This document shows positions 3,331 through 62,562 of a stretch of DNA of 64,000 nt, piece by piece (within the stretch, counting starts at the first letter, position 1; each line of letters starts with the position of its first letter). The notes under the pieces are model-generated. The model saw only the letters and a list, made by a program, of their open reading frames with translations, did no database searches and had not been told where the DNA came from. The stretch is from the NCBI GenBank assembly GCA_021108315.1, contig JAIORE010000354.1:27919-91918 (forward strand), written 5' to 3'. The position numbers were made by a program, and so were the translations under genes. This DNA comes from Candidatus Cloacimonadota bacterium (GTDB lineage: Bacteria; Cloacimonadota; Cloacimonadia; Cloacimonadales; TCS61).

Positions 3331-3410
3331 AAATCTCGAGTCGAGTTTTGATACGACTCAATAGAATTAATATGCTTCCTAACTATCCATCAAAACCCGA
3401 CTCGGGATTT
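3331..3410. repeat. MITE-like element with CGAGTCG-core inverted termini (80 bp)
   Basis: The left end AAATCTCGAGTCGAGTTTTG (3331-3350) and right end CAAAACCCGACTCGGGATTT (3391-3410) are near-perfect inverted repeats. A second copy with the same ends lies at 43871-43979. Confidence 0.6.
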
Positions 3411-3434
3411 TTGGTCAGGTTCCAAAATAAAAAA

Positions 3435-14246: not shown

Positions 14247-14337
14247 CTATTTCCTATTTCCTTTCTTTCCTGATCTTCCAATTACTCCAGTATTGGCAGT
14301 CACATAATAGAATCTATTCCCAACTGGAATTGTTTCA
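14247..14337 (-). pseudogene. 3' fragment of the IS-disrupted 118-aa 'mini' surface-protein paralog
   Basis: The minus strand encodes ...ETIPVGNRFYYVTANTGVIGRSGKKGNRK* (stop at 14247-14249). This is the same C-terminal tail as the giant proteins (IPATNKFYYVTANTG..., IPATNKFYYVSANTGVIGRSGKKRNRK). Confidence 0.85.
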
Positions 14338-16582: not shown

Positions 16583-16951
16583 TTTTTCCTCCTCGTTTGG
16601 TTTAATAAACTTTTTTTTAACCACGAATTTTCACTAATTAAGACGAATTAAAACGAATTTTCTAAGATTTTACAATAAATGAAATTAAATAAATTGGAAA
16701 TATTTTGTCTACTTTTTTTATTAATTGAATTTAGTTCTTGTTGGAGTAGGATGTCATTTCCGGTGGTAGCAATCGGTCTTCAGTGGGCTGAGATAGCATT
16801 GTTTTTTAACTCTCTTAATCCCATCCCCGACCCTTCCCCTTCGTAAAGGGAAGGGAGTTAGTTCTCCCGTGCACTTATGTTAAGAAGTAAAACTTATAAT
16901 AAATTTAAGATTATACTTAAACATAAGTGCAGAGGAATTAGAGGGGGCTCT

Positions 16952-17011
16952 CTTCCTGCTTTTCTCATGTTCCTTCTCTTGAATTTAAGAGAAGGATATC
17001 AGGATGAGTTC
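16952..17011. repeat. 60-bp hairpin repeat (CCTTCTCTT...AAGAGAAGG core)
   Basis: CTTCCTGCTTTTCTCATGTTCCTTCTCTTGAATTTAAGAGAAGGATATCAGGATGAGTTC. A reverse-complement copy with few substitutions lies at 44739-44798. Confidence 0.6.
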
Positions 17012-17050
17012 TAAATGTAAAAACAGTTTCAAAATCAACACATCCCTTTG

Positions 17051-25788: not shown

Positions 25789-26033
25789 TCTCTCTTTCTT
25801 CACTTCATTATTGGATGTTCCGGGTTGGATATTGCCTGCCCCGTAAGGAACTTGCGACTGTTCGGGGGATATTCATTTAACTCTTCGTTAGTTTCAACCA
25901 TTGAAAAGGCTAAGATGAAAGAAATCCGCTAGCAGAAGCCATTTTCAAGGTTTCCGGTTTTTCTGTTTTATTGTCACATTCTGAACTCCACCCCGAAAAG
26001 ATGGGTGAAGTCCAGTCTGCTTTTTCATATTTC
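25789..26033 (-). repeat. Conserved structured element directly 3' of the 3681-aa gene (copy C)
   Basis: Collinear with 14042-14246. It has an extra hairpin insert at ~25835-25867 (CCCCG...CGGGG). The stop-proximal hairpin at 25981-26015 again needs G:U pairs that exist only in the minus-strand RNA. One A:C position of copy A is a C:G pair here. Confidence 0.55.
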
Positions 26034-43557: not shown

Positions 43558-43870
43558 TTAAGGAAAGTTAAATCTTGACTTAAATATATCAAAACTACTT
43601 TATTGTAATTCAAATTTGATAAGCTCCAGATTGAATTTATTCTACAGAATTAGTGTTTTACTGAAAAGTTTTAAAAAAAACGAACCGTAACAAAACAGAG
43701 ACTTATGAAACTTAATATCACAAAAGGCACAAGCAGGATTCTTTACGATACATACCCGTCATTTTAGGATTGATTAAACACTATAATATTATTTGAAATC
43801 TACCTATTATGTAGAATACTTTGAATCTAATTAGTATCTGAACGAAAAAGAAAATTTTAAAGAAAAGATG

Positions 43871-43979
43871 AAATCTCGAGTCGGGTTTTGGATAATAATA
43901 ATAAATCTATTTATATAAAATATATATTACTTAGAGATTTATTGAAATTAATTTAAGATCAAAACTCGACTCGGGATTT
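43871..43979. repeat. MITE-like element with CGAGTCG-core inverted termini (109 bp)
   Basis: AAATCTCGAGTCGGGTTTTG (43871-43890) and CAAAACTCGACTCGGGATTT (43960-43979) have the same ends as 3331-3410. The interior differs. Confidence 0.6.
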
Positions 43980-44032
43980 CAAGAATTACGGAGTTTTCGT
44001 TCAGATATTAATCATAATAAAGAGAGGGGAAA

Positions 44033-44686: not shown

Positions 44687-44738
44687 CAGTGAAGTGGGAT
44701 GGTTTTAAAACATTTTGATTTTTTTTGTTTTCCTCATT

Positions 44739-44798
44739 GAACTCATCCTGCTGTCCTTCTCTTAATTTCAAGAGAAGGAACATGAGAAAAACAGGAAG
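44739..44798. repeat. 60-bp hairpin repeat, reverse-complement copy of 16952-17011
   Basis: GAACTCATCCTGCTGTCCTTCTCTTAATTTCAAGAGAAGGAACATGAGAAAAACAGGAAG. It is embedded in a 350-bp hairpin-rich spacer (44687-45039). Confidence 0.6.
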
Positions 44799-45039
44799 AA
44801 TAAAGAAACCTTCCGACCTGAACCACTCACGAGTGGTCAGGCCACCTTCCTTGTTAAAGAAGGCTTGTCTCTCTTCATAAGGGAGATGTCCGCAGGACAG
44901 AAGGTTTCTTTACAAAAGGAAAGAGTTTACCCGTGAAATCTTTTCTATTTCACTGGGGGGAGAGTTTGAAAAATTGAAAATAAAATAGAGAATGTTAGTT
45001 ATTACTAAAATTTAACATATCCCTTGAGGAAAAGGAAAC

Positions 45040-46956: not shown

Positions 46957-47086
46957 CAGGGAAATTTTTTAAAAACTGTTGAGGTTTTAATCTCAACTCA
47001 ATGTTCTTTTCGAATTGATTAGTAGAATCATAAGTAGTAAGGAGCGGAACAACTTAGAAACGACTAAAAAACTGGAGGAAAAATAA

Positions 47087-48514
47087 GTGTTATCTAACGA
47101 AATTCAGAAAGGGGAATCAAAAATTCTTGAGTTCAAAGAAATGTTTCCTATCTCAGAAAATCTGATTAAAACAGTAATTGCATTTTCCAATACAGCAGGG
47201 GGAAAGATCATTATTGGAATAAATGATGATCGGGAAGTAGTTGGAATTGATGAAAACATTATTTTCGATTTGAGTGATAGAATTTCTTCAATTATATACG
47301 ATAGCTGTTCTCCAAACATTATACCTGAAATTTATACTCAACATATTGAGAATAAAACAGTATTAGTGATAGAAATTTTTAGAGGAAATCTATTACCGTA
47401 CTATATTAAATCAAAAGGGAAGAATAAAGGAACTTATATTCGCATCGGTGCTACAAATAGACCTGCCGGTGACGAGATTATCTTTGAGCTGGAAAGACAA
47501 AGAAGAAATATTAGTTTTGATGAAGAAGCAGATTATCAGATATCTTTAAAAAACAAGGATTATTTACCTCTAAAAATACAATTCAAGGCGATAGAGAAAA
47601 ATTTGAAAAAAAATGATCTTCTAAATCTGAAACTTTTAATCTTAGAAAACAAACAAATCTATCCATCCAAAGCACTATTAATTTTACTTGGAATATATGA
47701 TAATGTTAAAATGAAATGTGCCAGATTCAAAGGAAATGATACTTCGGTATTTTTGGATAGAAAAGAGTACAAAGGAGACCTTTTTGAACAACTATCTAAT
47801 GCAGAAAAATTCATAAAAAATCATATTCAACTCAGAGGTGAAATTAAAGGACTGCAAAGAACAGATACATACGAAATTCCAACTGAAGCAATCAGAGAAG
47901 CATTAGTCAATGCCATTGTTCATAGAGATTATGTGAACCAAGGGCGGGATATAAAAGTTGCCGTATTTGATGATCGTGTTTCCATAGTTTCTCCGGGTGG
48001 ATTTCCCAAAACTATTACCGAAAACGATATATTGCAGGGACGTTCGGAAATACGAAACAAAATTACTGCCAGAATTTTTAAAGAATTAAAATATATAGAA
48101 CAATGGGGTACCGGAATTCAAAGAATCATTACCGTTTGTAAAAAAGCAGATTTACCGGAACCGCAATTCAATGAAACAGGAGATTTTGTAGAAGTTATTT
48201 TATATAAAGAAACTAAGATAGACTCTGTTACTTATTATGACGGAAAACGACCGAATAAAACGACCGAAAACGACCGAAAACGACCGATTAGGACTGATTA
48301 TAATGATCTATCTAATTTTGAAAAAACTGTAATGATATACATCGAAAAGAATGAATCAATTACAAAAAAAATAGTTAAACAACTTATTAGTTGTGGTGAT
48401 ACAAAAGCAAAAGAGATATTAAAAGGTTTATTAACGAGAAAACTAATTGTAAAAAAAGGAAATGGAAGAAGTACACATTATAAAATTAATATTTCGAGTC
48501 GTAAGGAAGAATGA
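47087..48514 (+). CDS. AlbA_2 (Schlafen-type 'divergent AAA') + HATPase_c_4 + C-terminal wHTH putative DNA-binding regulator
   Basis: The GTG start follows GGAGGA. The N-terminal GESKILEFKE...IKTVIAFSNTAGGKIIIGINDD matches AlbA_2. The central EAIREALVNAIVHRDY...GGFP matches the RecG-C/HATPase_c_4 type. The last six codons and the stop lie inside a palindromic repeat. Confidence 0.75.
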   Translation: MLSNEIQKGESKILEFKEMFPISENLIKTVIAFSNTAGGKIIIGINDDREVVGIDENIIFDLSDRISSIIYDSCSPNIIPEIYTQHIENKTVLVIEIFRGNLLPYYIKSKGKNKGTYIRIGATNRPAGDEIIFELERQRRNISFDEEADYQISLKNKDYLPLKIQFKAIEKNLKKNDLLNLKLLILENKQIYPSKALLILLGIYDNVKMKCARFKGNDTSVFLDRKEYKGDLFEQLSNAEKFIKNHIQLRGEIKGLQRTDTYEIPTEAIREALVNAIVHRDYVNQGRDIKVAVFDDRVSIVSPGGFPKTITENDILQGRSEIRNKITARIFKELKYIEQWGTGIQRIITVCKKADLPEPQFNETGDFVEVILYKETKIDSVTYYDGKRPNKTTENDRKRPIRTDYNDLSNFEKTVMIYIEKNESITKKIVKQLISCGDTKAKEILKGLLTRKLIVKKGNGRSTHYKINISSRKEE

Positions 48515-48576
48515 CGACGACTCGAGAAAAAAGTTGAAATCAAATTATTCTCGACTCGACGTTCCTTTCGAGTCGA
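48494..48576. repeat. Double-hairpin palindromic element (TCGAGTCGT...ACGACTCGA and TCGACTCG...CGAGTCGA), intergenic copy
   Basis: TCGAGTCGTAAGGAAGAATGACGACGACTCGA ... TCTCGACTCGACGTTCCTTTCGAGTCGAAA. Both hairpins recur inside the giant ORF at 56353-56462. Confidence 0.65.
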
Positions 48577-48611
48577 AAAATGGAAAATATAAAAAATGTT
48601 AGGAGGAAAAA

Positions 48612-49691
48612 ATGAGCAAGAAACAATTCTTTATAAGTTTGGTAATTATTGGTTTAACGGTTATTTGCAATGCTACAGTTTGGCGTTTGAATAATATCCC
48701 GGGAGTCGATGCCGATTTTATTACAAACTTACAAGATGCAGTTGATGGTGTTACATCTGGAGATACGATTTATGTGGAGCAAAGCCCATTTAGTTACGAT
48801 GGGGCAACAATCTCGAAACAAGTAATTCTGATTGGTGGGGGATATTGGCTTACAGAAAATGATTCTACGCAAGCATCAGAAGAAGAATCGGAAATTGGAG
48901 GTTTAGTATTTAATCCAGGTAGCGAAGGTTCGATAGTTTCCGGTTTTGCCATATATCATGAGCTAACTCTTTTTATGATAACAATCAATACTGATAATAT
49001 TATCATTGAAAGATGTTTTCTTTATTTCGGTGCAAAAGATTATGATAATATTGCTCCAATTATGTATATAAATGGGAATCTAAACAATATTACGATTCGA
49101 CAAAATTGGATGTATTATTATAATGTGAGTGGAGCTGGAGTTTGTATTTATTTCAATGGGGATTCGCAAAATGTACTTATTAAAAATAATTTTATAAGTT
49201 CTAATACAAGCAACCTTAGTGGTGGTTCAATTAGAATGGAAATCGGAAGTACAGTAAACTCTCCTCAAATAAGTAATAATATAATTGAAGGGGAAATTCA
49301 TACTTTTAATTGTGTATATGTAAATAACATTCTTTTAGGAGGTAATTTTTATAATGGTTCCGGTGGAATCATTGCCAACAATCTCTGCAACGGAACTCAA
49401 TTTCCCGATACAGATAACAACCAGCAAAATGTCGATATGGCAACTGTCTTTGTAGATCACGATCTTTACATAGATAACGGCTATATTTTAGCCCCGGGTT
49501 CTCCTGCTATCGGAGCAGGATTTAATGGCGGAGATTGTGGAATGTTCAGTAATGATTATGGTGGAGTTCCTTATGTGTTATCAGGTTTACCTGCTATTCC
49601 GGCAATTTATGAAATAGATTTTAATTCTACGATATTTCCTTCCGATGAAAACACATTGGAAGTGAATGTTAAGGCAAAATCGCATAATTAA
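48612..49691 (+). CDS. Secreted right-handed beta-helix repeat protein (359 aa)
   Basis: The ATG follows AGGAGG. There is a signal peptide or anchor MSKKQFFISLVIIGLTVICNA. Successive PbH1-like turns are NITIRQNWM, VLIKNNFIS, QISNNIIEG, VYVNNILLG and IIANNLCNG. Confidence 0.7.
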   Translation: MSKKQFFISLVIIGLTVICNATVWRLNNIPGVDADFITNLQDAVDGVTSGDTIYVEQSPFSYDGATISKQVILIGGGYWLTENDSTQASEEESEIGGLVFNPGSEGSIVSGFAIYHELTLFMITINTDNIIIERCFLYFGAKDYDNIAPIMYINGNLNNITIRQNWMYYYNVSGAGVCIYFNGDSQNVLIKNNFISSNTSNLSGGSIRMEIGSTVNSPQISNNIIEGEIHTFNCVYVNNILLGGNFYNGSGGIIANNLCNGTQFPDTDNNQQNVDMATVFVDHDLYIDNGYILAPGSPAIGAGFNGGDCGMFSNDYGGVPYVLSGLPAIPAIYEIDFNSTIFPSDENTLEVNVKAKSHN

Positions 49692-49693
49692 TA

Positions 49694-49921
49694 CCGTTTT
49701 GGGAAACCATTAAAATGGTTGATGAGTGTGTATCGTCTATATCACCCATAATTGAAATTATGGGTTTCGACAAAAAGACAGAATACATTGTGTTCATCCG
49801 TAAAATGTGGTTTCGAATCAAAAAAAACTAATTTTACGGATTAGTGCAAAATAGAAGCCCACAAATTCATTTGTGGGAAAAATGATAGATAAAAAATATC
49901 GATAACCGTTTCAACGGTTTA
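49694..49921 (+). repeat. ~230-bp multi-hairpin module, left copy (direct repeat of 50364-50594)
   Basis: It starts with GTTTTGGGAAACCATTAA, homologous to the last six codons and stop of the Y1-transposase gene. It contains the hairpins AACCATT-AA-AATGGTT, CCCATAATT-GA-AATTATGGG, CCGTAAAAT...ATTTTACGG, CCCACAAAT-TC-ATTTGTGGG and AACCGTT-TC-AACGGTT. Confidence 0.7.
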
Positions 49922-49939
49922 CAAAAGGAGTAAATATCA

Positions 49940-50383
49940 ATGTCACATTCTCTGACAAGAATTTGGATTCATTCTGTTTGGGGTATAAAAAATAGATTTC
50001 CTTTTTTGAGTGATACCACAAGAAATGAGATTATTGATCATTTGAAAATAAAATTCGATGAATTCGGTTGTGGAGTCAGAATTATCAATGGGACAGAAGA
50101 TCATATATATTCTCTATTTCTTTTAAATAAGAATGATTCTTTAAAAGCTATTATGAAAAGTATTAAAGGTGAATCCTCGCATTGGATAAATGAAACTAAT
50201 TTTTATAAGGCAAAGTTTTCTTGGCAAATAGGTTATGGAGCTTTTTCTGTTAGTGAATCATTAGTGAAAAAAGTTGAACGATATATCAGAAATCAAAAAG
50301 AGCATCATAAGAAAACATCCTTCAAAGAAGAATGGGATTTGTTAATAAAGAAACATAATATTATTGTTTCGGGAAACCATTAA
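49940..50383 (+). CDS. IS200/IS605-type Y1 (HUH) transposase-like protein, RAYT-like; HUH motif reads H-I-Y
   Basis: 147 aa. The sequence LTRIWIHSVWGIKNRFPFL..., ...GTEDHIYSLFLL..., SWQIGYGAFSVSES and ERYIRNQKEHH (catalytic Tyr region) fits the family. Codons CAT ATA TAT at 50101-50109 give H-I-Y where the family has H-U-H. Confidence 0.75.
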   Translation: MSHSLTRIWIHSVWGIKNRFPFLSDTTRNEIIDHLKIKFDEFGCGVRIINGTEDHIYSLFLLNKNDSLKAIMKSIKGESSHWINETNFYKAKFSWQIGYGAFSVSESLVKKVERYIRNQKEHHKKTSFKEEWDLLIKKHNIIVSGNH

Positions 50384-50594
50384 AATGGTTGATAAGTGTG
50401 TGTTTTTGTTTTGTTTCCTATAATTGAAATTATGGTTTTCTGTAACAAAAGACAGAATACATCGGGTTCATCTGTAAAATGTTGTATTTAGTCGAAAAAA
50501 TTGATTTTACGAATTGGCGTAATAATAGAAACCCACAAATTCATTTGTGGGAAAAAGATAAATAAAAAATATAGATAACCGTTTCAACGGTTTA
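50364..50594 (+). repeat. ~230-bp multi-hairpin module, right copy
   Basis: The order of hairpins is the same as in 49694-49921, with scattered substitutions. It overlaps the 3' end of the Y1-transposase gene and ends ~6 nt before the RBS of the 3982-aa gene. Confidence 0.7.
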
Positions 50595-50613
50595 TTAAAT
50601 GAGGAGCAAAAAA

Positions 50614-53600
50614 ATGAAAAAAATAATTTTATTTTTTATAATAATTTTAATAGTATGTAAAATTTTATATCCTCAATCTCCTGACATAATTGCCCTAGAA
50701 TACTATTTCGATACTGATCCCGGTTTTGGTTACGGAACCCCCATTCCCGTAACACCTGATAGCCTTATTAACGAGAATTTTACGGTTGATATCACCAGTC
50801 TATCAACCGGAAATCACAGATTCTATGTACGCACCAAAGATGAAGATAGTAAATGGAGTTTAACCTATAAACAGGATATTTACAAATCTGATGTAACAAA
50901 CACACCTCCCGAACCTTTACCAAGCATAATCACAGCAGAATACTATTTTGATACTGATCCCGGCTTTGGCAATGGAACACCGATTTCTGTAACTCCAGAT
51001 AGTCTTATAAATAAGGATTTTACGGTTGATCTCACCAGTTTATCAACCGGAAATCACAGATTCTATGTCCGTACTATAGATGAAGATGGTAAATGGAGTT
51101 TAACCTACAAACAGGATATTTACAAAACAGATGTTACCAATACTCCTCCCGAACCTTTACCTGACATCGTCGCAGCAGAATATTATTTCGATACAGATCC
51201 CGGCTTTGGCAATGGAACACCGATTTCTGTAACTCCTGATAGTCTTATTGATAAAAACTTTACAACTGATTTAACCGGTTTATCAACCGGAAATCACAGA
51301 TTCTATATACGCACCAAAGATGAAAACGGTAAATGGAGTTTAACATATAAACAGGATATTTACAAAACAGATGTTACAAATATTCCTGCCGAACCTTTAC
51401 CTGATATTATTGCAGCGGAATACTACTTCGATACAGACCCAGGTTTCGGTAACGGCATTCCGATTACCGTCTCTCCCGATAGTCTTATCAATGAAAACTT
51501 CATTGCAGATATTTATTCATTGGATACCGGAGTGAGTATTTTCAATGTAAGAATTTTGGATGAAAACGGAAACTGGAGTTTGAATCATATTCAGGAGATT
51601 GATATTTCCTTAAATGCGGAATTCAGTGTTTCTGATACGGTAGTTGCTATGGCTCAAGAGATACAATTCAATGACCTCTCATTTGGCAATCCTTCAAATT
51701 GGAATTGGAATTTTGGTGATGGAAACACAAGTATTGAACAAAATCCGACGCATAGTTATTTACAAAATGGTACTTTTGATGTTACTCTTGAAGTTACGGC
51801 AGGAGATTCAGTTTCTTCAATAATCAAAGAAGAATTGATTTTTGTAGATAATTATATGAATGTCGGCGGAACAATTTCGGAAGACACTTTCTGGAATGCC
51901 GATACAATTAAAGTATTCAGTGAAATAAACATCCAAGACGGCGTAACCCTAACCATAGATCCCGGAACTTACGTAGAATTCCAAGGACATTACAAACTCA
52001 ATGTTCAAGGAAGGATTTTAGCAGAAGGCACTCCAGAAGAAATGATTACTTTCACCATAAATGACACAACCGGTTTCAGCAATATTGAAAGCACTGATGG
52101 CGGTTGGCACGGAATAAGGTTTGAGAATACTCCTGCTACGAATGATTCCTCGAAGATTGTTTATTGTATAATTGAGTATGGAAAGGCTATAAACGAAACA
52201 GGTGGTGCTATATCATCTGCTGATTTTTCAAAATTGTTAATTAAAAATAACTTGATTGATAAAAATTATGCTACTTCTGGAGGTGGAATCTATTGTTCAA
52301 GTTCATCTCCAATAATTGAAAGTAACATCATAAATAATAATATAGCTATTATTGGATATGGTGGTGGTATTTATTGTCCATATTCTTCTAATCCTACGAT
52401 AATAAATAATATTATTTCAAATAATTCCTCAGTATCAGGTGGAGGTATTGCCGTATCCACAAATTCTAATCCTTACATATTTAATTGCACTATTGTAGAA
52501 AATTTTGCACAATTTGGTGGGGGTATTTATGCCGATGAAGTTTCCAATCCGACAATGAAAAATACAATTATTAGAGGTAATGTTGCTTCATCTTCCGGAA
52601 ATCAGATTTATATATATGATGACAATTCAGATCCAACTTATGAATTTTGCAATATCGAAGGCGGAAGTGCCGCTTTCGGCTTAAGTGGTGGAGTAACTTA
52701 CACCGGTACCTACCAAAACAACATAGACACAGACCCAAACTTTGCAGGAACCGGAGACCATCCGTACCAACTCGGTGATATGTCATTCTGTGCCAATGCC
52801 GGAACACCGGATACAACCGGATTAAATCTACCGGAATTCGATCTTGCCGGAAATTCGCGTATTTTTAACGATAGAATTGATATTGGTGCTTATGAATATC
52901 ATGGAACGGAATTTCAACCGGATTTTGTGTGGGCAGAGAGTGCGGGTGGTGAAGAAGATGGCTCAGGAAGCGGTATTTGTGTTGATTTATCAGGAAATAC
53001 ATATGTAACCGGCAATTATAGCGGATTAGCTTCCTTTGGAGAAATAAATCTAATAAATAGTGGGGGACAAGATATTTTTGTAGCAAAGATGGATAACGAT
53101 GGAAATTGGCTATGGGCTACTCAAGCGGGAAGCAGTGGTGATGATCGAGGATATTCAATCAAAACTGATATCAATGGAAATTCCTATGTTATTGGTTGTT
53201 ATAGTGGTTCTGCTTCCTTTGGAGAAACCACTCTTCAGACTTATGGTGACTTAGATATATTTGTCGCAAAGATGGATTCCAACGGAAACTGGCTTTGGGC
53301 TACAAAAGCAGGAGGTGATGGTGCAGACACGGGATATTCAATTACAATTGATGACACAGGTAATTTATTAGTTACCGGTTTATTCAGAAATACAGCAACA
53401 TTTGGGGCATACCAGCTTACTTACAGTGGAAATTGCGATATCTTTGTAGCTAAGATGGATGCTAACGGAAACTGGCTTTGGGCTACAAAAGCAGGAGGCA
53501 ACAATACTGATGTAGGCCACTCAATTGCACTTGATGAAACTGGGAACATTTATGTTTCAGGATATTACAGAGATACAGCCAATTTTGGTTCCTATTCTTT

Positions 53601-56600
53601 GAGTGGACTTGGTATTCAAGATATTTTCGTCGCAAAAATGAATTCAAACGGAAACTGGTTATGGGCAACCAAAGCAGGTGCAAATTCCCATGATATTGGA
53701 TATTCAATCATTGTTGATAGAGTTGGCAACTCCTATACAACCGGTTATTTTTCTAATACAGCAATATTTGGGTCACATTCTCTAACGAGTAATGGAAATA
53801 CTGATATTTTTGTAGCTAAAATGGACCCTAATGGTAATTGGTTATGGGCTTCAAAAGCAGATGGAATTAGTCTTGATGGTGAAGTTGGACATTCAATTTC
53901 AATAGATAGTATTGGAAATCTTTATATTACAGGTACTTTCAAAGGAGCAACAACTTTCGATTCTATAACTATTACAAGTAATGGTAGTCAGGATGCCTTT
54001 ATATCTAAAATAGATACTTTAGGTAACTGGGTTTGGGCAATAAATATTGGAAGTATTGATTCTGATTATGGAAATAAAATCGCTGTTGATGTAGCTGGTA
54101 ATTGCTATACAACAGGTTTTTTCCGCGATTCTACATATTTTGGATCAACCGAACTAACCAGCAATGGCAACTCAGACATTTTCATCACCAAATTTGGCTA
54201 CGACACTTCTATCCCAACTTTCGAATCCGATTTCACAGCAGATAGTACAAATGTCTCTGCCGGAACTTCCATCCAATTCACCGATACTTCCGTAGGAACT
54301 CACGATGCTTGGTTATGGAATTTTGGAGATAACGCAACAAGCACGGAACAAAATCCCAACCACATTTATAATACTCCCGGAACTTACACGGTTTCTCTCA
54401 CAATTACCAAATGGCCCTTCAGCGACAGAGAAACTAAAACGGATTTCATAACAATTACAGATAATATCGAGCATGGTTTGGTTGCTTATTATCCGTTTAC
54501 AAACGGAAGTGTTGCCGATAGCTCCGGAATCGGTAACAATGGAACAAATAACGGAGCAACTCCTGCTTTAGATAGATTTGGGAATGAGAATTCTGCTTTT
54601 GAATTTGATGGTGATACAGATCACATTAATATTGGTAATGATGCGAGTTTAAGATTATCATCTTGGACATTTAGTGTTTGGTTAAATGTAGTTGATACTT
54701 CCATAACAAATTCAATAATTTCAAAAAGCCCGGGTGCGGGTGATCCTAATTCAACAAATTATTATTTAGAAATCACTACTGAAGGAAAATATTTCGGAAT
54801 TTTTGAAGACATTGACGGTAATGATTCAGGTATAGAAACTTCAAGTATTGCTCAAAATCAATCTTGGCAGCATGTATGTTATTGTTTTAGTAACAGCACA
54901 AATATTGAAGAGATTTTTGTTAACGGTCAATTAGCTGCTACTCAGGTTAATGACTTGGTTCCGGCTCCGGATGATGAATCCGTGTCATTTGATGCTTATA
55001 TTGGTTACCTCTTGGGAAATGATAGCGAATTCAATGGAAAACTTGACGATATTCGCATCTACAATAGAGCTATATCCGAATCTGAAATAGGCTTACTATA
55101 TGACAATTACGATAAATATTTAAATGCTGATTTTTCTGCAGATATCACCGCAGGTTCAGTTCCTTTTACCGTACAATATAGCGATCTTTCTTTTTCCTCT
55201 CAAGATGACATTTCTGTTTGGGAATGGGATTTTAATAATGACGGGTTAATTGATTCTTATGAGCAAAATTCTACTTGGATTTATCAAGACTCAGGAATAT
55301 TTGGAGTTTCATTAACTGTTACCGATAGTGATTCTACTGTAATCGAAACAAAAGAAAATTACATAACGGTTTCCGGTGAAGCATATTCAGAAGATTTTAA
55401 TAATTCCGGTGCTTTCCCTGTAGGATGGACAACAAATCAGGGAACAAGAGCAAGTTGGAACATAATTCTGGATAGTGGTGAAGATTACAGTGCAAAAGTT
55501 GTTGGAGAAATGACAGTTCCGACAGAAGAATGGTTAATCTCACCTGTTTATAATTGCAATGAATACACAAATATTTCTTTGGAATTTTGGCACAGCTACC
55601 TTGATGCTCCTCCGACATTTGACTCAGGAGAGCTTGGTGGTCACGTAAAATTCAGATTAAACGAAGGTGAATGGTTTGAATTAGCACATTATAATCAAAC
55701 AACTTCTGGGAATGTATCACTTCCGATTCCGGCTGCCGATTTACAAAATTCTCTTCAAATAGCTTTCTGCCATCAAAAAATAAATGCTAGTCATACGGAT
55801 TATTGGAATATTGATGATTTCTTGATTATAGTTTCAGCTATAGATAATACACCTCCGACAGTTTGCTCACCATTGACCGGTGAGAATTTATTTCAAAATT
55901 CCGTAACTTTACATTGGATACCTACTATAGAAGAACATTTTTCTCATTATGAAATCTTTTATGATACTGATATTGTTGATGTTAATTCTGCAATGTGGTC
56001 GGTAAATGAGGATTCTGCTTTGGGAGAACGCTCTGCAAACACAACCATAATTTCAGGTTTAGAATCATTAAACACATATAATTTCATCATTCGTGCTCTC
56101 GATACAAACGGATTAATTAGTGATATTTCAAATACTGCAATTGTTGATGTTGATCCTGAGTTTGATCCACCCATAATTTCAATTCCTATTCCTGCTCAGC
56201 CGTCTGATTGGTTCACAAGTCATACTGTTATTATAGGTTGCACAATTTCAGATGCAGGATTCGGAGTGGATGATACTTCTATTGAATACCGATTTGATTA
56301 TAACGGAAACGGAATTTATGATACTGCCCCCGAAGAAGATTGGCAAACATATTCGAGTCGTAAGGACGAAGGACAACGACTCGAGCAGAAGGGTAAGGAT
56401 GAAGAACAGCGATTTGAGCAAGAGGATTATTTATCTCGACTCGACGTTCCTTTCGAGTCGAAAGATAATATTTTACAAACAAGAGCTTCTCAAATCATCT
56501 GTCAAACCGAAGTAACTTATTCTGAAAGTGTAAATGATGGTGATTCTCTCCATTTTGAGTGGCGAGCATCAGACTTGCAGCAAAACGGTCCTACTTACAG

Positions 56601-59600
56601 CGGAAGCAGTAGTTTATTCGGTATTGAAGATGATTGGTACATAATAACAGATGTTACACATCCAACTACAATAACAACAATAATTCCTTTTGAATATCCG
56701 GTAACTGAAGCAACAATTTATTGGGATCCGATATCTACAGACCTGTTTTTTAATACTTATAAAATTTATTATTGGAATTATGACACGGTGGATGAAAACA
56801 GTTGGGTTTGGGATTCCTCTGACGATCCCTTACTTTCTAATGCGAGTTCTGTCACAACTATTATCCCCGGTTTAGCTCCGAACACAAATTATTATTTCAA
56901 AATAACCGGAGTAGATTTAGCAGGTAATATTGGTCAATTAAGTCCTGTATCTTCAGTTCTGGTTCTTTCGGGAGATACCGGAGCACCGACAGCACCACAA
57001 AATTTATCAGTAGTATCTTCATTGAATGACATTGAGTTGAGTTGGGATCTCGGACCTGAAGCGGATTTGGATTATTATAGAGTTTTTCGTGATACTATTC
57101 CTGAACCGACAAATGCAATTGATACGGTTTATGTTTTTCAGAAAGGTGATATTCCACAAATGAGTTATTCGGATTACAATTCCAATAATGGTGATAATTA
57201 TTATAGAATTTCCGCAGTAGATGATGACGGAGATGAGAGTGGGTATTCAGATGAAGTGAATGCTATTTGTAACAGAACATTGTATTATATTTCCATAACA
57301 GGATCGAATTCCACTGGAACCGGTTCAGAGAATAATCCATTTGCCACCATTCAGTACGGGATTGATGAAGTTGAAACCGGAGATACAGTTTTAGTTAATC
57401 CAGGAACATACATTGAAAATATTAATTATAATGGAAAAGACATAATTGTTGCATCTTTGTTTTATACGACACAAGATACTTCTTATATTTCACAAACAGT
57501 TATCAATGGTAACCAGAATGGTAGTGTAGTAACTTTTGAGAATGGAGAAGATATGACAGCTGTTCTTTGTGGAATTAAGATTAAAAACGGACATGGATTT
57601 GGTAGTACACCCTATTATACAGCAGGTGGCATTACATGTAGAAATAATTCAAGTCCGAGTTTTAACAATCTTATAATATCGGAAAATTCTGCTGTATATG
57701 GTGGTGGAATTTACTGTTCGAATTATTCTAACCCAATTTTGAGTAATATGACGATAAAAAACAATTATGCTAATTATTATGGTGCAGGGATTTACTGTTT
57801 TTATTCCAGCCCAAGTTTGGATAATGTAATAATAAAAGAAAATTCTTCTTCTATGGATGGTGGTGGAATATATTGTCGGTATTCATATCCAAATCTAACA
57901 AATGTGGTAATAATAGGAAATTGGGCTAACTACGGAGGAGGTGGTATTTGCTGTAAGTATTCAAGTCCTAATTTGAATAATGTGTCAATAATAGGAAATA
58001 TTGCTGACCAATCTCAAAACGGAGGTGGGATCACCTGTTATAATAATTCCAGTCCAAGTATTTCTAATTCTATTTTTTCAGAAAATACTAATTATGGAAT
58101 AAGTGGGGGTAATGGTAATCCATTGATACAATACTCAAATTTCTGGAATAATGGGAATGCAAATTTCTATAACTGCGATCCTTCAATTGGTGTTAATGTA
58201 AATTCAAATGCAAATGGTGATTCTTGTGATATATATAACAATATTCAATTAGATCCTTTATTTGTTGATCCCGGTAATGACGATTATCATTTAACAGCAA
58301 ATTCTCCCTGCATAGACGCAGGAGATCCAAACTCACCTTTAAATCCAGATGGCACAATAACAGATATTGGTGCATATTATTTTCATCAATCACAATCAGG
58401 TCTTGTTGCAGACTTCGAAGCCAATCCCACTTCAGGTTTAACTCCTTTATCAATAGAATTCACAGACCTGTCTTCACCAACAGATTCCATATCAACTTGG
58501 TACTGGGATTTCGGAGATGGAACAGATTCTACTTATACTTCGTTCTTAAGCTCATTTACCCATATTTATGAAAACGCAGGAATATTTACTGTTTCCCTCA
58601 CTGTGACGGATAACAGCGATTCAACCTTCACCGAGACAAAAACAAATTACATCACAGTAACCGAACCTCAGCCGATTTTATCAGTAACACCAGATAGTTT
58701 AGATTTTGAAATAACCCTTACAGAATTGGAATTGTATATCCAAAATACCGGAACAGGTGATTTGAGCTGGAGTATTACGGAAGATATTTCATGGTTATCA
58801 GCAGTACCGGAATCCAATTCAAGAAATGTAATATCACCCAATCGAACTTCTCAAAAACAAAAGCAAATATTATCTAACGGCATAAACAGAGAATTATTAA
58901 GAAGCACAATAGATACAGTACTAATTACTATAAACCGAGCAGGACTCGGAGCAGGAATTTATTCCGATTCATTACTTATTACTTCAAATGGTGGAAATGA
59001 TACAATATTTGTGAGTATGGAGATATTAGATATTTTTGCTCCTGCTGATCCTTCCGGTCTGACAGCTTATGATGGTCCCAGCGAGATAGAACTTATTTGG
59101 TCACTAAATTCCGAACCGGATTTAAGGAAGTACAAAATATTCCGTGATACAAATTCACCGGCAGTAACTTTAATTGATAGTATTATGGGAACTCCTCCCG
59201 ATACAACCTACACAGATAGCGATGTTGTTGTAGGACAAACATATTTTTATCGTATAACAGCAGAAGATTCCCTTGGTAATGAAAGTGGTTTTTCCAATGA
59301 AGATAGTGCAACACCATATTTTGTTTATACAGGTCCCGTATGGCATGTTTCAATTGCCGGAAGCGATATAATCGGGGACGGTTCAGAGGGTGATCCCTTT
59401 GCTACAATTCAATTCGGTATAGATACATCCTCTGCAATTGATACCATAATGGTTCATCCGGGAATTTATTACGAGAGTATTGATTTCACCGGGAAAAATA
59501 TCATTGTAAGTTCACTTTATAGTACAACTGCCGATACAACTTATATTTCTCAAACAAAGATCAACGGTGAAGATACCGGAAGTGTAGTAATATTCGATAG

Positions 59601-62562
59601 TGGCGAAGACTCCACAGCAGTTTTAACCGGTTTCACAATAACTAACGGTAGTGCAACAAACGGTGGTGGTATCTATTGTGCAAACTCATCACCGAAACTG
59701 CATAACCTCATCGTAAACTCAAATCTTTCAACCTATGGTGGAGGAATATATCTGTACAATTCAGAAACACAAACTTTACGAGTGACAATTAGTGGTAATC
59801 AGGCAATTGAGAAAGGTGGTGGGATTTATGTGGATGGTTCTGTACCATATTTTACTAATACTACAATAAGCGGTAATCAAGCGATACACGGAGGAGGAGT
59901 TTATTGTAAAAATTCAGATCCTGTAACATTTCGTAATTGTACCCTCTGGGGAAATGCAACATATCAGATAGCTTTTGGACATGATACTCTTCAAAGCAAA
60001 TTATATTTATATTACACTGGAGTTAAGGGTTGTATTGGTGGAATAGATTTCGGTGCCAACTATGGCACTCTTGAGACAAATGTTCAGGATATTATCACTG
60101 CAAGCCCAATGTTTGTTGAGCCATTGTATGTGAATATGTTATCTGTTCCTACAACAGATGGTAATTTTCATCTTTTCCCATTTTCAACATACATAGATGC
60201 CGGAGATCCCAATACAATTTACAATGATTCCGATGGAACGAGAAATGATATAGGAGCCTGGTATTTTGATCAAAACAATCCGCCGAATTATTTTGATAAC
60301 GTATTTTTTGTTTCTACTTCTGGAAATGATAGTAGTGGAGATGGCTCCTGCAATGATCCATTTGCAACTATTCAACATGCAGTAGATCTGGTAGAATCAA
60401 ATAGTATAGATTCGGTCATAGTATTTGAAGGAACGTATCTTGAAAATGTACAGATTAATACTTCGGTAATATTGAGCAGTCTATATTTACTTGATCCCTA
60501 TACTGCCCATATAGATTCCACAACTATTGATGGAAGCACACCAACTGATCCGGATGAAGGAAGTGTGATCGCTATCCTTAATCCCGGCATACGGGTTAAT
60601 GATTTGAATGTTACGATATTGGGATTTAAAATTGCTCACGGTTCCGGCTGGAATATACAAGATGAAATTATTTTGCCTAACGGTCAGAATTATACTCTCA
60701 ACAGATTCGTGGGAGGTGGGATATTTGTCCGAAATTGTAATCATTTTATCAAGCATAATCTGTTTTTTGAAAACGGTTTGGATAATATTGATGAAGGTGG
60801 AGGAATTTATACATATATGGAAGATGGTGATAAAACCAGAATAGTTTTGGATTATACACATAATTATTTCTACAATAATTATGCCGAAATTGGTAAAAGT
60901 ATTTCTTCAAATGGTTTTAATGGAACAATAGACCTCTCTTACAGTGAATTTGATGTTTATGCTTCATTCGGTAGAAATTCGGGAGCAGTTTCCAATTATT
61001 GGTGTGCCGGTGATTCCTCAGTGAATTATATTTTTGATGATTGCAGTGGAAGGTTAGAAGCAGAAAGGGAAGATCAATATATCTATCCTGATAGTCTGGG
61101 AACGGTTTTGAGTAAAGTTTATGCAGATTCTCTTAATCCGATTACAATAAATATCTCATCGGGAAGGATGCAGCCACAAAGAGAAGAAATAGCCACCTTT
61201 CCTTTACAAATGGTAAATTATGTTTCATTAGTAGGAGCAGGAGCGAATTCCACAATAATTGATGCCGAGAATACTGATAAAGCATTTATTTTGGATAATG
61301 TGAAAGGTGTGAATATCGAATCTTTGAAGATACAGAATGGTAACGGTGATTTGGGTGGAGGAGTTTATATCAATAATTCAGAACTCAGTTTTACAGATGT
61401 TGAAGTTGATAATAATAATGCTGAAGTTGGTGGTGGTATATATATAAAAAATTCTAATTCAACATTGAGTTCAATAGATTTTGAAGGTAATCATGCTCAA
61501 CACGGTTTTGCCGGTGGAATATACTTGGATGATTCAGATATTGAATTGTTGGATATAACTTTTACCCATAATACGGTTGCCTATATAGTAGGACTAACAG
61601 AAGATGCTTATGGGGGAGGTATTTGCAGTTACAATACCGATTTATTGATTGAGAATATCACCATTGATGGAAATTCACTTATTGGGGATAATACTAGAGG
61701 AGGTGGGATTTATTTATTTGATAGCGAGAATCAGGACTCAAATATTACAATTCGAAATGTAAATATATTGAATAATACTGCTGTTTTTGGTGGAGGAATT
61801 TTTCTTACTCGAGTAAATCCAATGTTTGAAAGAGTTCTTATCGGCTGCAATACAGCTTATATGACAGGTGGTGCGATCTATAGCTCGAATTCACATCCGG
61901 AACTTTATAACGTTACTGTAACAGATAATGATGCAAATATGGGAACCGATGGAATCTATCTCACCGGTCAAGGGCTTTCCACACCTGGATTAATCGTAAC
62001 TAACAGTATTTTGTGGTCAAATGGACTTTACCAGATCACATTAGATGGTGATCCCAAGACAGTAACAATTTCTTATACGGATATTGAAGGTGGATTAACC
62101 GGAATTTATACGGAAGGTGGAGATCAAATTAATTACCAAACGGGAAATATCAATGATGATCCTTTGTTCGTAAATCCATTAGAAAACAATTATCATTTAA
62201 CGATTAACTCTCCTTGTATTGACACTGGAAATCCTTCTGATCCTCCAGATCCGGATGGAACAATAACAGATATGGGAGCTTTTTATCATCATCAGGGAGG
62301 ATTGGAGATACCTGAGAATATAATCATAACTACAACAGTAAATGGTAATAATACAGATGTATTGATTCAGTGGGATGAAGTTTCCGGAGCAACTTCTTAT
62401 GATGTTTACTCTACCGATAATCCTGATAACTCTTTCCCAGAAGGATGGAATCTGGAAGCAAATACATTTACAAATTCTTGGGGCTATACAACCATCACAG
62501 AAAAAAAGTTTTATTGCATTACGGCATTAAGAGACAATCCTACGAGAATTAGAAGAAAATAG
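50614..62562 (+). CDS. Giant secreted surface protein (3982 aa): 4x80-aa N-terminal repeats, PKD, PbH1 beta-helix, SBBP beta-propeller repeats, LamG-like, FN3; C-terminal FN3-like module with basic tail
   Basis: The ATG at 50614 lies 7 nt after GAGGAG. Signal peptide MKKIILFFIIILIVCKILYP. It has four AEYYFDTDPGFGNGTPI...GNHRFYVRT.DE.GKWS repeats and four PKD domains (W.W.FGDG....NP.H.Y...G...V.L.VT). There are many GGGIYC..SSP.I.NN turns and about eight DIFVAKMD.NGNWLWA units. A LamG-like segment runs LVAYYPF...LDDIRIYNRAISE. The C-terminus is ...IQWDEVSGATSYDVYSTDNP...KKFYCITALRDNPTRIRRK. No T9SS CTD. Confidence 0.85.
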   Translation: MKKIILFFIIILIVCKILYPQSPDIIALEYYFDTDPGFGYGTPIPVTPDSLINENFTVDITSLSTGNHRFYVRTKDEDSKWSLTYKQDIYKSDVTNTPPEPLPSIITAEYYFDTDPGFGNGTPISVTPDSLINKDFTVDLTSLSTGNHRFYVRTIDEDGKWSLTYKQDIYKTDVTNTPPEPLPDIVAAEYYFDTDPGFGNGTPISVTPDSLIDKNFTTDLTGLSTGNHRFYIRTKDENGKWSLTYKQDIYKTDVTNIPAEPLPDIIAAEYYFDTDPGFGNGIPITVSPDSLINENFIADIYSLDTGVSIFNVRILDENGNWSLNHIQEIDISLNAEFSVSDTVVAMAQEIQFNDLSFGNPSNWNWNFGDGNTSIEQNPTHSYLQNGTFDVTLEVTAGDSVSSIIKEELIFVDNYMNVGGTISEDTFWNADTIKVFSEINIQDGVTLTIDPGTYVEFQGHYKLNVQGRILAEGTPEEMITFTINDTTGFSNIESTDGGWHGIRFENTPATNDSSKIVYCIIEYGKAINETGGAISSADFSKLLIKNNLIDKNYATSGGGIYCSSSSPIIESNIINNNIAIIGYGGGIYCPYSSNPTIINNIISNNSSVSGGGIAVSTNSNPYIFNCTIVENFAQFGGGIYADEVSNPTMKNTIIRGNVASSSGNQIYIYDDNSDPTYEFCNIEGGSAAFGLSGGVTYTGTYQNNIDTDPNFAGTGDHPYQLGDMSFCANAGTPDTTGLNLPEFDLAGNSRIFNDRIDIGAYEYHGTEFQPDFVWAESAGGEEDGSGSGICVDLSGNTYVTGNYSGLASFGEINLINSGGQDIFVAKMDNDGNWLWATQAGSSGDDRGYSIKTDINGNSYVIGCYSGSASFGETTLQTYGDLDIFVAKMDSNGNWLWATKAGGDGADTGYSITIDDTGNLLVTGLFRNTATFGAYQLTYSGNCDIFVAKMDANGNWLWATKAGGNNTDVGHSIALDETGNIYVSGYYRDTANFGSYSLSGLGIQDIFVAKMNSNGNWLWATKAGANSHDIGYSIIVDRVGNSYTTGYFSNTAIFGSHSLTSNGNTDIFVAKMDPNGNWLWASKADGISLDGEVGHSISIDSIGNLYITGTFKGATTFDSITITSNGSQDAFISKIDTLGNWVWAINIGSIDSDYGNKIAVDVAGNCYTTGFFRDSTYFGSTELTSNGNSDIFITKFGYDTSIPTFESDFTADSTNVSAGTSIQFTDTSVGTHDAWLWNFGDNATSTEQNPNHIYNTPGTYTVSLTITKWPFSDRETKTDFITITDNIEHGLVAYYPFTNGSVADSSGIGNNGTNNGATPALDRFGNENSAFEFDGDTDHINIGNDASLRLSSWTFSVWLNVVDTSITNSIISKSPGAGDPNSTNYYLEITTEGKYFGIFEDIDGNDSGIETSSIAQNQSWQHVCYCFSNSTNIEEIFVNGQLAATQVNDLVPAPDDESVSFDAYIGYLLGNDSEFNGKLDDIRIYNRAISESEIGLLYDNYDKYLNADFSADITAGSVPFTVQYSDLSFSSQDDISVWEWDFNNDGLIDSYEQNSTWIYQDSGIFGVSLTVTDSDSTVIETKENYITVSGEAYSEDFNNSGAFPVGWTTNQGTRASWNIILDSGEDYSAKVVGEMTVPTEEWLISPVYNCNEYTNISLEFWHSYLDAPPTFDSGELGGHVKFRLNEGEWFELAHYNQTTSGNVSLPIPAADLQNSLQIAFCHQKINASHTDYWNIDDFLIIVSAIDNTPPTVCSPLTGENLFQNSVTLHWIPTIEEHFSHYEIFYDTDIVDVNSAMWSVNEDSALGERSANTTIISGLESLNTYNFIIRALDTNGLISDISNTAIVDVDPEFDPPIISIPIPAQPSDWFTSHTVIIGCTISDAGFGVDDTSIEYRFDYNGNGIYDTAPEEDWQTYSSRKDEGQRLEQKGKDEEQRFEQEDYLSRLDVPFESKDNILQTRASQIICQTEVTYSESVNDGDSLHFEWRASDLQQNGPTYSGSSSLFGIEDDWYIITDVTHPTTITTIIPFEYPVTEATIYWDPISTDLFFNTYKIYYWNYDTVDENSWVWDSSDDPLLSNASSVTTIIPGLAPNTNYYFKITGVDLAGNIGQLSPVSSVLVLSGDTGAPTAPQNLSVVSSLNDIELSWDLGPEADLDYYRVFRDTIPEPTNAIDTVYVFQKGDIPQMSYSDYNSNNGDNYYRISAVDDDGDESGYSDEVNAICNRTLYYISITGSNSTGTGSENNPFATIQYGIDEVETGDTVLVNPGTYIENINYNGKDIIVASLFYTTQDTSYISQTVINGNQNGSVVTFENGEDMTAVLCGIKIKNGHGFGSTPYYTAGGITCRNNSSPSFNNLIISENSAVYGGGIYCSNYSNPILSNMTIKNNYANYYGAGIYCFYSSPSLDNVIIKENSSSMDGGGIYCRYSYPNLTNVVIIGNWANYGGGGICCKYSSPNLNNVSIIGNIADQSQNGGGITCYNNSSPSISNSIFSENTNYGISGGNGNPLIQYSNFWNNGNANFYNCDPSIGVNVNSNANGDSCDIYNNIQLDPLFVDPGNDDYHLTANSPCIDAGDPNSPLNPDGTITDIGAYYFHQSQSGLVADFEANPTSGLTPLSIEFTDLSSPTDSISTWYWDFGDGTDSTYTSFLSSFTHIYENAGIFTVSLTVTDNSDSTFTETKTNYITVTEPQPILSVTPDSLDFEITLTELELYIQNTGTGDLSWSITEDISWLSAVPESNSRNVISPNRTSQKQKQILSNGINRELLRSTIDTVLITINRAGLGAGIYSDSLLITSNGGNDTIFVSMEILDIFAPADPSGLTAYDGPSEIELIWSLNSEPDLRKYKIFRDTNSPAVTLIDSIMGTPPDTTYTDSDVVVGQTYFYRITAEDSLGNESGFSNEDSATPYFVYTGPVWHVSIAGSDIIGDGSEGDPFATIQFGIDTSSAIDTIMVHPGIYYESIDFTGKNIIVSSLYSTTADTTYISQTKINGEDTGSVVIFDSGEDSTAVLTGFTITNGSATNGGGIYCANSSPKLHNLIVNSNLSTYGGGIYLYNSETQTLRVTISGNQAIEKGGGIYVDGSVPYFTNTTISGNQAIHGGGVYCKNSDPVTFRNCTLWGNATYQIAFGHDTLQSKLYLYYTGVKGCIGGIDFGANYGTLETNVQDIITASPMFVEPLYVNMLSVPTTDGNFHLFPFSTYIDAGDPNTIYNDSDGTRNDIGAWYFDQNNPPNYFDNVFFVSTSGNDSSGDGSCNDPFATIQHAVDLVESNSIDSVIVFEGTYLENVQINTSVILSSLYLLDPYTAHIDSTTIDGSTPTDPDEGSVIAILNPGIRVNDLNVTILGFKIAHGSGWNIQDEIILPNGQNYTLNRFVGGGIFVRNCNHFIKHNLFFENGLDNIDEGGGIYTYMEDGDKTRIVLDYTHNYFYNNYAEIGKSISSNGFNGTIDLSYSEFDVYASFGRNSGAVSNYWCAGDSSVNYIFDDCSGRLEAEREDQYIYPDSLGTVLSKVYADSLNPITINISSGRMQPQREEIATFPLQMVNYVSLVGAGANSTIIDAENTDKAFILDNVKGVNIESLKIQNGNGDLGGGVYINNSELSFTDVEVDNNNAEVGGGIYIKNSNSTLSSIDFEGNHAQHGFAGGIYLDDSDIELLDITFTHNTVAYIVGLTEDAYGGGICSYNTDLLIENITIDGNSLIGDNTRGGGIYLFDSENQDSNITIRNVNILNNTAVFGGGIFLTRVNPMFERVLIGCNTAYMTGGAIYSSNSHPELYNVTVTDNDANMGTDGIYLTGQGLSTPGLIVTNSILWSNGLYQITLDGDPKTVTISYTDIEGGLTGIYTEGGDQINYQTGNINDDPLFVNPLENNYHLTINSPCIDTGNPSDPPDPDGTITDMGAFYHHQGGLEIPENIIITTTVNGNNTDVLIQWDEVSGATSYDVYSTDNPDNSFPEGWNLEANTFTNSWGYTTITEKKFYCITALRDNPTRIRRK
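50680..51639 (+). repeat. Four tandem 240-bp (80-codon) coding repeats
   Basis: Unit starts CCTGACATA 50680, CCAAGCATA 50920, CCTGACATC 51160 and CCTGATATT 51400. Units 1-3 are highly similar at the nucleotide level and unit 4 is more diverged. Confidence 0.85.
56353..56462 (+). repeat. Double-hairpin palindromic element inserted in frame within the 3982-aa ORF
   Basis: TCGAGTCGTAAGGACGAAGGACAACGACTCGA (56353-56384) and TCTCGACTCGACGTTCCTTTCGAGTCGAA (56434-56462) match the intergenic element at 48494-48576. The segment is translated as ...SSRKDEGQRLEQKGKDEEQRFEQEDYLSRLDVPFESK... Confidence 0.7.

Follow-up and report, generated by a model that had tools for sequence, protein, structure and literature searches.

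An in-frame palindromic doublet in a giant gene

The window analysed here is a 64,000-nucleotide stretch of contig JAIORE010000354.1 from a Candidatus Cloacimonadota bacterium, and it carries a giant gene for a multi-domain surface protein whose open reading frame (ORF) contains a palindromic doublet, that is, two hairpins (H1 and H2) separated by a spacer; a sibling doublet lies 8 kb away, mostly in intergenic DNA (Table 1). The giant ORF, of 3987 amino acids from the first ATG or 3982 from the second, stays open through the element, the translated segment being SSRKDEGQRLEQKGKDEEQRFEQEDYLSRLDVPFESK, with SSRKDEGQRLEQK and LDVPFESK among the element-encoded peptide stretches. An earlier note on this DNA had claimed an open frame with a highly charged in-frame segment at this place, and we found exactly this: 37 residues within an uninterrupted ORF 50599-62562.

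In the coding copy (56352-56463) the sequence of H1 is TTCGAGTCGTAAGGACGAAGGACAACGACTCGAG and that of H2 is TCTCGACTCGACGTTCCTTTCGAGTCGAAA. H1 measures 33-35 nt and H2 26-30 nt, each has a 9-bp stem and a folding z-score of about -2.7 to -3.0, and H2 is approximately the reverse complement of H1 with the central base pair of the stem flipped. When the two doublets were aligned, H1 was identical at 30 of 33 nt (48493-48525 versus 56352-56384, three mismatches) and the H2 29-mer CTCGACTCGACGTTCCTTTCGAGTCGAAA at all 29 positions (48550-48578 and 56435-56463), with the same order and orientation of H1 and H2 in both copies. Dinucleotide-preserving shuffles of the window gave an expectation of 0.00 matches for the H2 29-mer as well as for the H1 stem pattern. 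The recurrence of the hairpins, placed by the earlier note at 48494-48576 and 56353-56462, was thereby borne out, and the observation as such is confirmed in all details. The 86-nt sibling can form two separate hairpins or a single long one, and H2 of the coding copy is the second strongest local fold within the 12-kb ORF. GC content is 46% in the coding copy compared with about 32-37% in its flanks.

The earlier note had described the two hairpins of the intergenic element as recurring here. The likeness to that element stands, but the coding copy is more than a plain copy and holds an internal tandem duplication of 33 nt (56360-56392 versus 56393-56425). The two units are identical at 26 of 33 positions, all seven differences are transitions, and they specify KDEGQRLEQKG and KDEEQRFEQED; because their length corresponds to 11 codons the frame is kept, and it is this duplication that makes the spacer of the coding copy 26 nt longer than that of the sibling. 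Without it the coding copy would measure about 78 nt (26 codons), the usual size of a doublet. The hairpins differ from those of the nearest family members at only 1 of 59 positions, compared with 7 of 33 in the duplicate (Fisher p = 0.003), a contrast that would fit recent homogenisation with other copies, selection for the stems, or a duplication that was imperfect from the start.

Across 14 doublets a fixed stop codon is present in only one of the six frames, the one that reads TCG-TAA, and the other five are usually open; a doublet insertion of a length divisible by three is therefore usually read through. The overlapping short ORFs that the earlier note had listed at the element (56252-56515 on the plus and 56279-56482 on the minus strand) do exist, and they reflect the single fixed stop among six frames; the earlier note had related them to an atypical local composition.

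Table 1. Position and properties of the repeat copies, the host domain and the genes around them in the window.
Feature	Position	Strand	Details
Intragenic H1-spacer-H2 palindromic doublet	56352..56463	+	codons 56353-56463 (111 nt) encode 37 amino acids, SSRK...PFESK
H1, coding copy	56352..56385	+	9-bp stem TCGAGTCGT/ACGACTCGA, 14-nt loop, AAGGAC twice; minimum free energy (MFE) -13.2 kcal/mol, z -2.7
H2, coding copy	56434..56463	+	9-bp stem TCGACTCGA/TCGAGTCGA, loop CGTTCCTT; MFE -13.9 kcal/mol, z -2.95; translation SRLDVPFESK
33-nt tandem duplication inside the element	56360..56425	+	covers H1 loop and 3' arm
Ig-like beta-sandwich domain interrupted by the element	56173..56649	+	both halves homologous to one domain family in 108 other proteins
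Host gene, multi-domain surface protein	50599..62562	+	PKD, fn3 and beta-helix-like repeats; basic C-terminal tail
Sibling doublet, mostly intergenic	48493..48578	+	H1 48493-48526, H2 48549-48578; MFE -30.6 kcal/mol, z -3.3
Schlafen AlbA_2 / HATPase_c_4 gene	47087..48514	+	C-terminus ...NISSRKEE*; last six codons (SSRKEE) and TGA inside sibling H1
Probable decayed H2-H1 remnant	46990..47070	+	upstream of Schlafen gene; nhmmer E 0.14 and 0.23, adjacent matches
Y1_Tnp (IS200-like) gene, 147 amino acids	49940..50383	+	between the two copies; candidate mobilising enzyme, link not demonstrated

The element lies in a loop of an Ig-like domain

Homologues of the host domain were collected with HMMER in an exhaustive search, for which the 201 residues surrounding the insert served as query and which recovered the protein itself and 108 homologues; a word-indexed protein search with a 241-amino-acid region was blind even to the protein itself. 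The insert follows a conserved W-x-x-[YVL] motif and precedes the next strand. Most of the 123 homologous domains surveyed have no extra residues at this site (typically W..x.GYSD...), and in a subset the loop is extended by 5 to 61 polar residues, the figure for the window protein being 37. The AlphaFold model built on the alignment of homologues has a mean predicted local distance difference test score (pLDDT) of 85; in it the two halves form one beta-sandwich (pLDDT 94-97) and the insert a helical excursion (pLDDT 57-76), and Foldseek returned generic Ig-like sandwiches only. From the survey of loop lengths and the model, the element occupies an exposed, length-hypervariable loop of the domain, as a charged excursion of 37 residues that is predicted, with low confidence, to be helical and around which the beta-sandwich is intact. 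The structure prediction that the earlier note had called for thus agrees with a surface loop.

The gene for the closest homologue, P0010, lies on a 3.9-Mb contig that shares synteny with the window at the CHASE2-cyclase gene. The loop DNA of P0010, like that of P0015 and P0041, has no similarity to H1 or H2, and the element is therefore foreign to the loop. A paralogous domain was not found within the window. In this domain family the long loops abound in S, R, N and K, and many have ..RNR.. or ..RD.. at their end. The idea that such S/R/N-rich loops of giant proteins are decayed hairpins was not supported, either by the loop DNA of P0041, P0015 and P0010 or by the strongest local folds in four large genes of the window, which miss such loops except for H2 itself.

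A dispersed repeat family in Candidatus Cloacimonadota

A scan with a 24-base H2 pattern over one genome per species returned five loci in four metagenome-assembled genomes (MAGs), every one labelled Candidatus Cloacimonadota, and a scan of metagenomes returned 12 further loci, 10 of them in one assembly; viral contigs gave no match to H1 or H2. At most loci H1 (consensus TTCGAGTCGTAAGGAGCGAAGCGACGACGACTCGA) is followed by a spacer of variable length, about 20-25 nt, and then by H2 (consensus TCGACTCGAYGTTCCTTTCGAGTCGAAAC). Head-to-tail arrays occur in L010, L017 and L018-L020, H2 stands alone at some sites and H1 is flipped in L004. The earlier note had proposed a tally of coding and intergenic copies: in the window and these 17 loci, which together hold about 20 non-redundant sites, 16 sites are extragenic, one (the 48.5-kb sibling) overlaps the 3' end of a gene and three are inside ORFs. 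The extragenic sites lie between housekeeping-type genes such as dxs, those of the EF-Tu family and translation GTPases, glyS, mutS, rpoC and the genes for ribosomal protein S7 and flagellin, and in 14 of 18 cases the element points the same way as the gene on its H2 side (p = 0.015). Short-read contigs of this organism, taken from two archives, start or end exactly within the 48.5-kb copy, as is expected of a repeat. By its anatomy, as judged from these alignments, the family resembles the dimers of repetitive extragenic palindromic (REP) sequences and BIMEs, and it is dispersed, mainly extragenically, in Candidatus Cloacimonadota.

The aligned ends of the elements read ..TTTCGAGTCGT.. and ..GAGTCGAAAC. 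A terminal GTAG is absent from them, and CGTC, the other hallmark used in the REP survey (PMC3733652), is present only inside the H1 stem and loop, on the complementary strand. Upstream of the Schlafen-family gene, the H2-like part of the probable remnant at 46990-47070 matches at 23 of 30 positions, and five of its seven changes are G-to-A or C-to-T. The Rfam 15 covariance models at their gathering scores gave no match anywhere in the window, nor was a tRNA or tmRNA found there, and the searchable literature yielded no mention of the family. We also rejected a reading of the hairpins as intrinsic terminators, since a terminator scan flagged H2 on the minus strand only, opposite to both flanking genes, and nothing at H1 or H2 on the plus strand, and a link to restriction-site avoidance around the stem cores TCGA and GANTC, neither of which is depleted in the window. 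The 4-nt palindromes that are depleted (observed versus Markov-expected) are GCGC (1 versus 14.7), GGCC (9 versus 37), CTAG (20 versus 78) and CATG (45 versus 168).

Other repeats are present in the window. A second hairpin family with the core TCGAGTCG has two copies, both intergenic (3330-3411 and 43866-43985), with the layout AAATCTCGAGTCGRGTTTTGR, an AT-rich spacer of 36-70 nt and ATCAAAACYCGACTCGGGATTT. An inverted pair of 72 nt (16951-17022 and 44728-44799), its members 27.7 kb apart, is 88% complementary, a 46-nt repeat family has four copies (1088, 13999, 17191 and 25646) beside the ends of giant genes, and a repeat of about 250 nt (14088-14337 and 25867-26124, 87% identical) lies downstream of two giant genes.

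In-frame insertions and empty sites in ribD

A lone H2 is present inside ribD at L006 (6230-6255, identical in L011 at 961-986), where its translation is FRLDVPFESK, the frame being the one used in the giant ORF. When the L006 RibD was aligned with 26 orthologues of 55-69% identity, 25 of them showed ..IPKLDISAEQL.. without an insert. L006 has eight extra residues, and its closest relative, P0111 from L021, has 20 at the same spot. In L021 (about 10655-10715) H2 is reversed in orientation (TCGACTTGAAAGGAACGTCGAGTTGA), its start is shifted downstream by about 8 nt, and it is accompanied by a partial 30-nt duplication of its 3' half; the ribD of L022 is an empty site. Alignment to solved RibD structures maps the insert to a variable stretch of the reductase domain. 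These comparisons show two separate in-frame insertion events in a conserved enzyme, in two Cloacimonadota lineages and at nearly the same site, seemingly a hot spot or else the sole position where an insert is tolerated, and it is the ribD of related genomes that gives the clean proof of insertion against an empty site. A peptide search with the translated element yielded no candidate even though the ribD product P0110 contains RLDVPFESK, which makes this negative uninformative.

The sibling copy and the upstream gene

The earlier note had claimed that the C-terminus and stop codon of the Schlafen-family gene at 47087-48514 are derived from the sibling element, and this held: SSRKEE and the TGA lie within H1. 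The TGA in the H1 loop is specific to the sibling, GGA being present in the other copies, and the gene reads the sibling in the same frame (SSRK...) as the giant ORF. In our reading, the tail of the gene would extend by about 28 more codons if this copy lacked the TGA variant. That a REP insertion at the end of a gene supplies its stop codon is a known side effect.

Several further features of this neighbourhood were recorded. Inside the Schlafen-family gene, at 48248-48286, are three tandem 10-nt units (CGGTCGTTTT, minus strand) that encode ..KRPNKTTENDRKRPIRT.. and are flagged by the terminator scan on the minus strand. In the 3.9-Mb relative (L025, 1-10000) the giant surface-protein genes directly follow the CHASE2/adenylate-cyclase gene, and the window has three extra genes at that place (46957-50598), namely those for Schlafen AlbA_2, a 359-amino-acid protein without a Pfam match and Y1_Tnp. 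The Schlafen gene is flanked by H1/H2 copies. The three-gene stretch may be an inserted block.

Origin of the in-frame copy

We consider it likely, and with good confidence, that 56352-56463 is an in-frame copy of a REP-like doublet. This is supported by the five of six frames in which the element is open, by flanks that both belong to one domain family and by the in-frame insertions in ribD; the coding copy keeps the downstream frame because the insert, including its 33-nt duplication, measures 111 nt. The copy would have arisen within the genome, with a single-stranded hairpin as the transposition substrate or through recombination or template switching that involved another copy, and would either have replaced most of an older loop or have entered a short one; for the protein it would be tolerated and without a function. 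At 48.5 kb the sibling lies against the 3' end of the upstream gene, whose last six codons and stop it gives. By analogy with REP/REPIN systems, the mobilising activity would most likely be that of a trans-acting HUH/Y1 transposase akin to the REP-associated tyrosine transposases (RAYTs). What doubt remains lies in the assembly junction and in whether the hairpins have a function of their own.

A number of observations weigh against this explanation. The 20-nt flanks of 14 aligned doublets share no direct repeat that would represent a target-site duplication, and no conserved terminal tetranucleotide is visible among the aligned copies. In the sequences available copies are few, with two intact and one decayed in 64 kb and one or two exact-pattern matches per MAG. 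No RAYT flanked by H1/H2 was found, the only Y1 gene of the 64-kb window being flanked by other repeats, and its product scores 53 bits against the IS200 cutoff of 55 and 19 bits against the cutoff of 80 of the RAYT model NF047646. At the insert site, all eight contiguously aligned homologous domains, P0010 included, have unrelated loops of 26-44 amino acids compared with 46 amino acids here; with homologue loops already this long, a simple insertion into an existing long loop would exceed the observed length. The alignment with homologues lacking the segment, which the earlier note had proposed, therefore showed sequence-unrelated loops at the site, but an empty-site orthologue of the giant gene was not found, and insertion with loss of an older loop cannot be told apart from entry into a short-loop ancestor. 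Finally, the 56.3-kb junctions come from this contig alone.

The long polar loop present at the site in all eight of these domains is also what speaks for a native coding loop whose likeness to the intergenic element is secondary, either because the intergenic copies were derived from the gene or through convergence or chance. Such a loop is strongly disfavoured by the identity to a copy 8 kb away (29/29 and 30/33, with 0.00 expected), by the same hairpins between unrelated housekeeping genes in other Cloacimonadota assemblies, by the unrelated loop DNA of the closest homologue and the lack of an extra loop in most homologous domains, and by a GC content of 46% compared with about 35% in the flanks, and we hold it to be extremely improbable. 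It is also very improbable that the contig was joined or patched across a repeat and that the in-frame arrangement is absent from the cell. The family does perturb assembly, as the same-organism short-read assemblies that break at the sibling element demonstrate, and exact-protein look-ups of the giant protein gave no independent contig spanning 56.3 kb. However, the flanks of the element make up one conserved domain, half on each side and with order and frame correct, which a chimeric join would not reproduce; the coding copy contains a diverged 33-nt duplication of its own, its spacer is unlike that of the sibling, and in-frame copies of the family are present in ribD in three independent records (L006, L011 and L021).

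The state of the hairpins themselves raises the question of whether they are retained for a role of their RNA or DNA, for instance by stabilising the mRNA internally or marking a site for its processing, by pausing translation between domains of a 4000-residue protein, or by promoting recombination that diversifies a surface loop. Neither 9-bp stem has a mismatch and H2 matches that of the sibling exactly, while the duplicate has decayed (7/33 versus 1/59), the co-orientation with the downstream gene suggests selection or bias at the level of the transcript, the loop site is hypervariable in homologues, and the same ribD site was struck twice. Recent copying or gene conversion by other copies, combined with an imperfect duplication, could also explain the contrast, hairpins do not encode the remaining polar loops of the window's giant genes and the loop DNA of homologues has no H1/H2 remnant; a retained role is, in our judgement, unlikely. 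Related to it, and quite unlikely, is the proposal that REP-like hairpins are a recurrent source of new loop sequence in giant adhesin-like proteins and in enzymes, with stems maintained inside ORFs by conversion or selection; the same ribD loop was struck twice and in both orientations. If true, it would amount to a hairpin-driven mechanism of loop diversification, with the stems acting on mRNA or in local recombination.

The identity of the element could also be questioned, in that a miniature inverted-repeat transposable element (MITE) of the DDE type, with terminal inverted repeats and mobilised by the transposase of an insertion sequence (IS), would have a comparable size (80-112 nt here) and inverted-complementary outer ends (TTCGAGTCGTAAGGA versus TTCGACTCGAAAGGA on the other strand, 13/15). 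These ends match because H1 and H2 are inverted relatives. The lack of a target-site duplication in the 14 aligned copies speaks against a MITE, lone H2 units occur and insert alone, which fits modular REP units and not an element bounded by terminal inverted repeats, and no parent IS was seen in the window or in related loci; we doubt this identity and give it little credence compared with that of a REP-like doublet.

The Y1 gene between the two copies

Aligned with the TnpA proteins of IS608 and ISDra2, the Y1 protein keeps the catalytic Tyr, but its HUH motif is degenerate (H-I-Y). This motif, the sub-cutoff scores and flanks without H1/H2 speak against it as the mobiliser; a link to the local Y1 gene is not supported, and this gene probably does not encode the mobilising enzyme. 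No relative of it was detected by tblastn in 19 other loci, and a Pfam scan of 67 ORFs of related loci covered the top 25 families among the matches listed, from which a single Y1 gene could escape. One entire REP super-family (CGTC) is also without a dedicated transposase (PMC3733652).

The gene is flanked by direct repeats of about 245 nt (49685-49939 and 50355-50598) that are 88% identical, unrelated to H1/H2 and each hold several small hairpins (GGGAAACCATTAAAATGGTT, CCCACAAATTCATTTGTGGG and AACCGTTTCAACGGTT). The upstream repeat starts just after the stop of the 359-amino-acid gene, and the downstream repeat starts within the Y1 gene, to which it contributes the last codons and stop (..SGNH*). 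Such a layout, with flanking repeats in direct orientation, is unusual for IS200/IS605 elements or REPtrons.

Relation to known repeats and significance

REP units form dimers that are mostly 20-100 bp apart, lie mostly between unidirectional or convergent ORFs and provide stop codons with their termini, and those wholly inside ORFs, of which more than half are dimers or groups, encode 20-30 or more residues for which linkers or loops have been proposed (Di Nocera et al. 2013, PMC3733652). The Cloacimonadota family shares with REP, BIME and REPIN sequences the short imperfect palindromes with 9-bp stems, the mostly extragenic location, the inverted heterodimers 20-50 nt apart that can form one long hairpin, the occasional tandem arrays and the position often near the 3' ends of ORFs, sometimes giving the stop, and sometimes wholly within ORFs as 20-30 or more residues. 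It differs in having no terminal GTAG and CGTC only inside H1, in loops of 8 and 14-16 nt that are longer than the 4-5 nt of the described CGTC REP families, in that no RAYT flanked by the elements was found and in a copy number that is apparently low in the available data. Cloacimonadota are not among the phyla listed in the REP survey (PMC3733652).

The earlier note had likened the element to the Rickettsia palindromic elements (RPEs), which, together with other intragenic MITE-like repeats, have been summarised (PMC10969869). The two have in common a palindromic repeat of about 100 nt in frame at a position compatible with the fold, other copies being intergenic (Ogata et al. 2000, cited in PMC10969869). 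Membership of the RPE families was nonetheless not sustained: the element's host belongs to an unrelated phylum and its matches all lie in Candidatus Cloacimonadota assemblies, grounds that set the families apart without a direct sequence comparison. Moreover, some Rickettsia families are nearly half intragenic compared with about 3 of 20 sites here, and RPEs have a conserved peptide and a preferred frame, whereas here the giant ORF and the L006 ribD share a frame and the L021 ribD has the other orientation. ERIC, BOX and Anabaena MITEs (PMC10969869) are likewise small non-autonomous repeats with in-frame fusions to host ORFs, but they have terminal inverted repeats and/or target duplications, or the modular BOX A-B-C structure, none of which was seen here. 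The supposed rarity of such insertions outside Rickettsia also did not hold, as many species are described with intragenic in-frame REP dimers and REP-supplied stops (PMC3733652; review PMC10969869). The core of the earlier claim, a palindromic repeat inserted in frame with a sibling that gives a stop, is supported by the dispersed family, the intact domain and the SSRKEE and TGA of the upstream gene. The event is thus of a known kind; what is new is the repeat family and the phylum, and it is neither an RPE nor a new mechanism.

The general picture for REP and RPE elements is unchanged by these results. In practical terms, the repeats break short-read assemblies and create spurious short ORFs, and they can mislead the annotation of C-termini and of 'low-complexity' loops in the giant proteins of Cloacimonadota. 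For the uncultivated phylum itself, the results describe a previously undescribed REP-dimer-like repeat family and document repeats becoming protein sequence, as the probable source of a 37-residue excursion in a giant ORF, in ribD with an empty-site control, and as the C-terminus and stop codon of a third gene.

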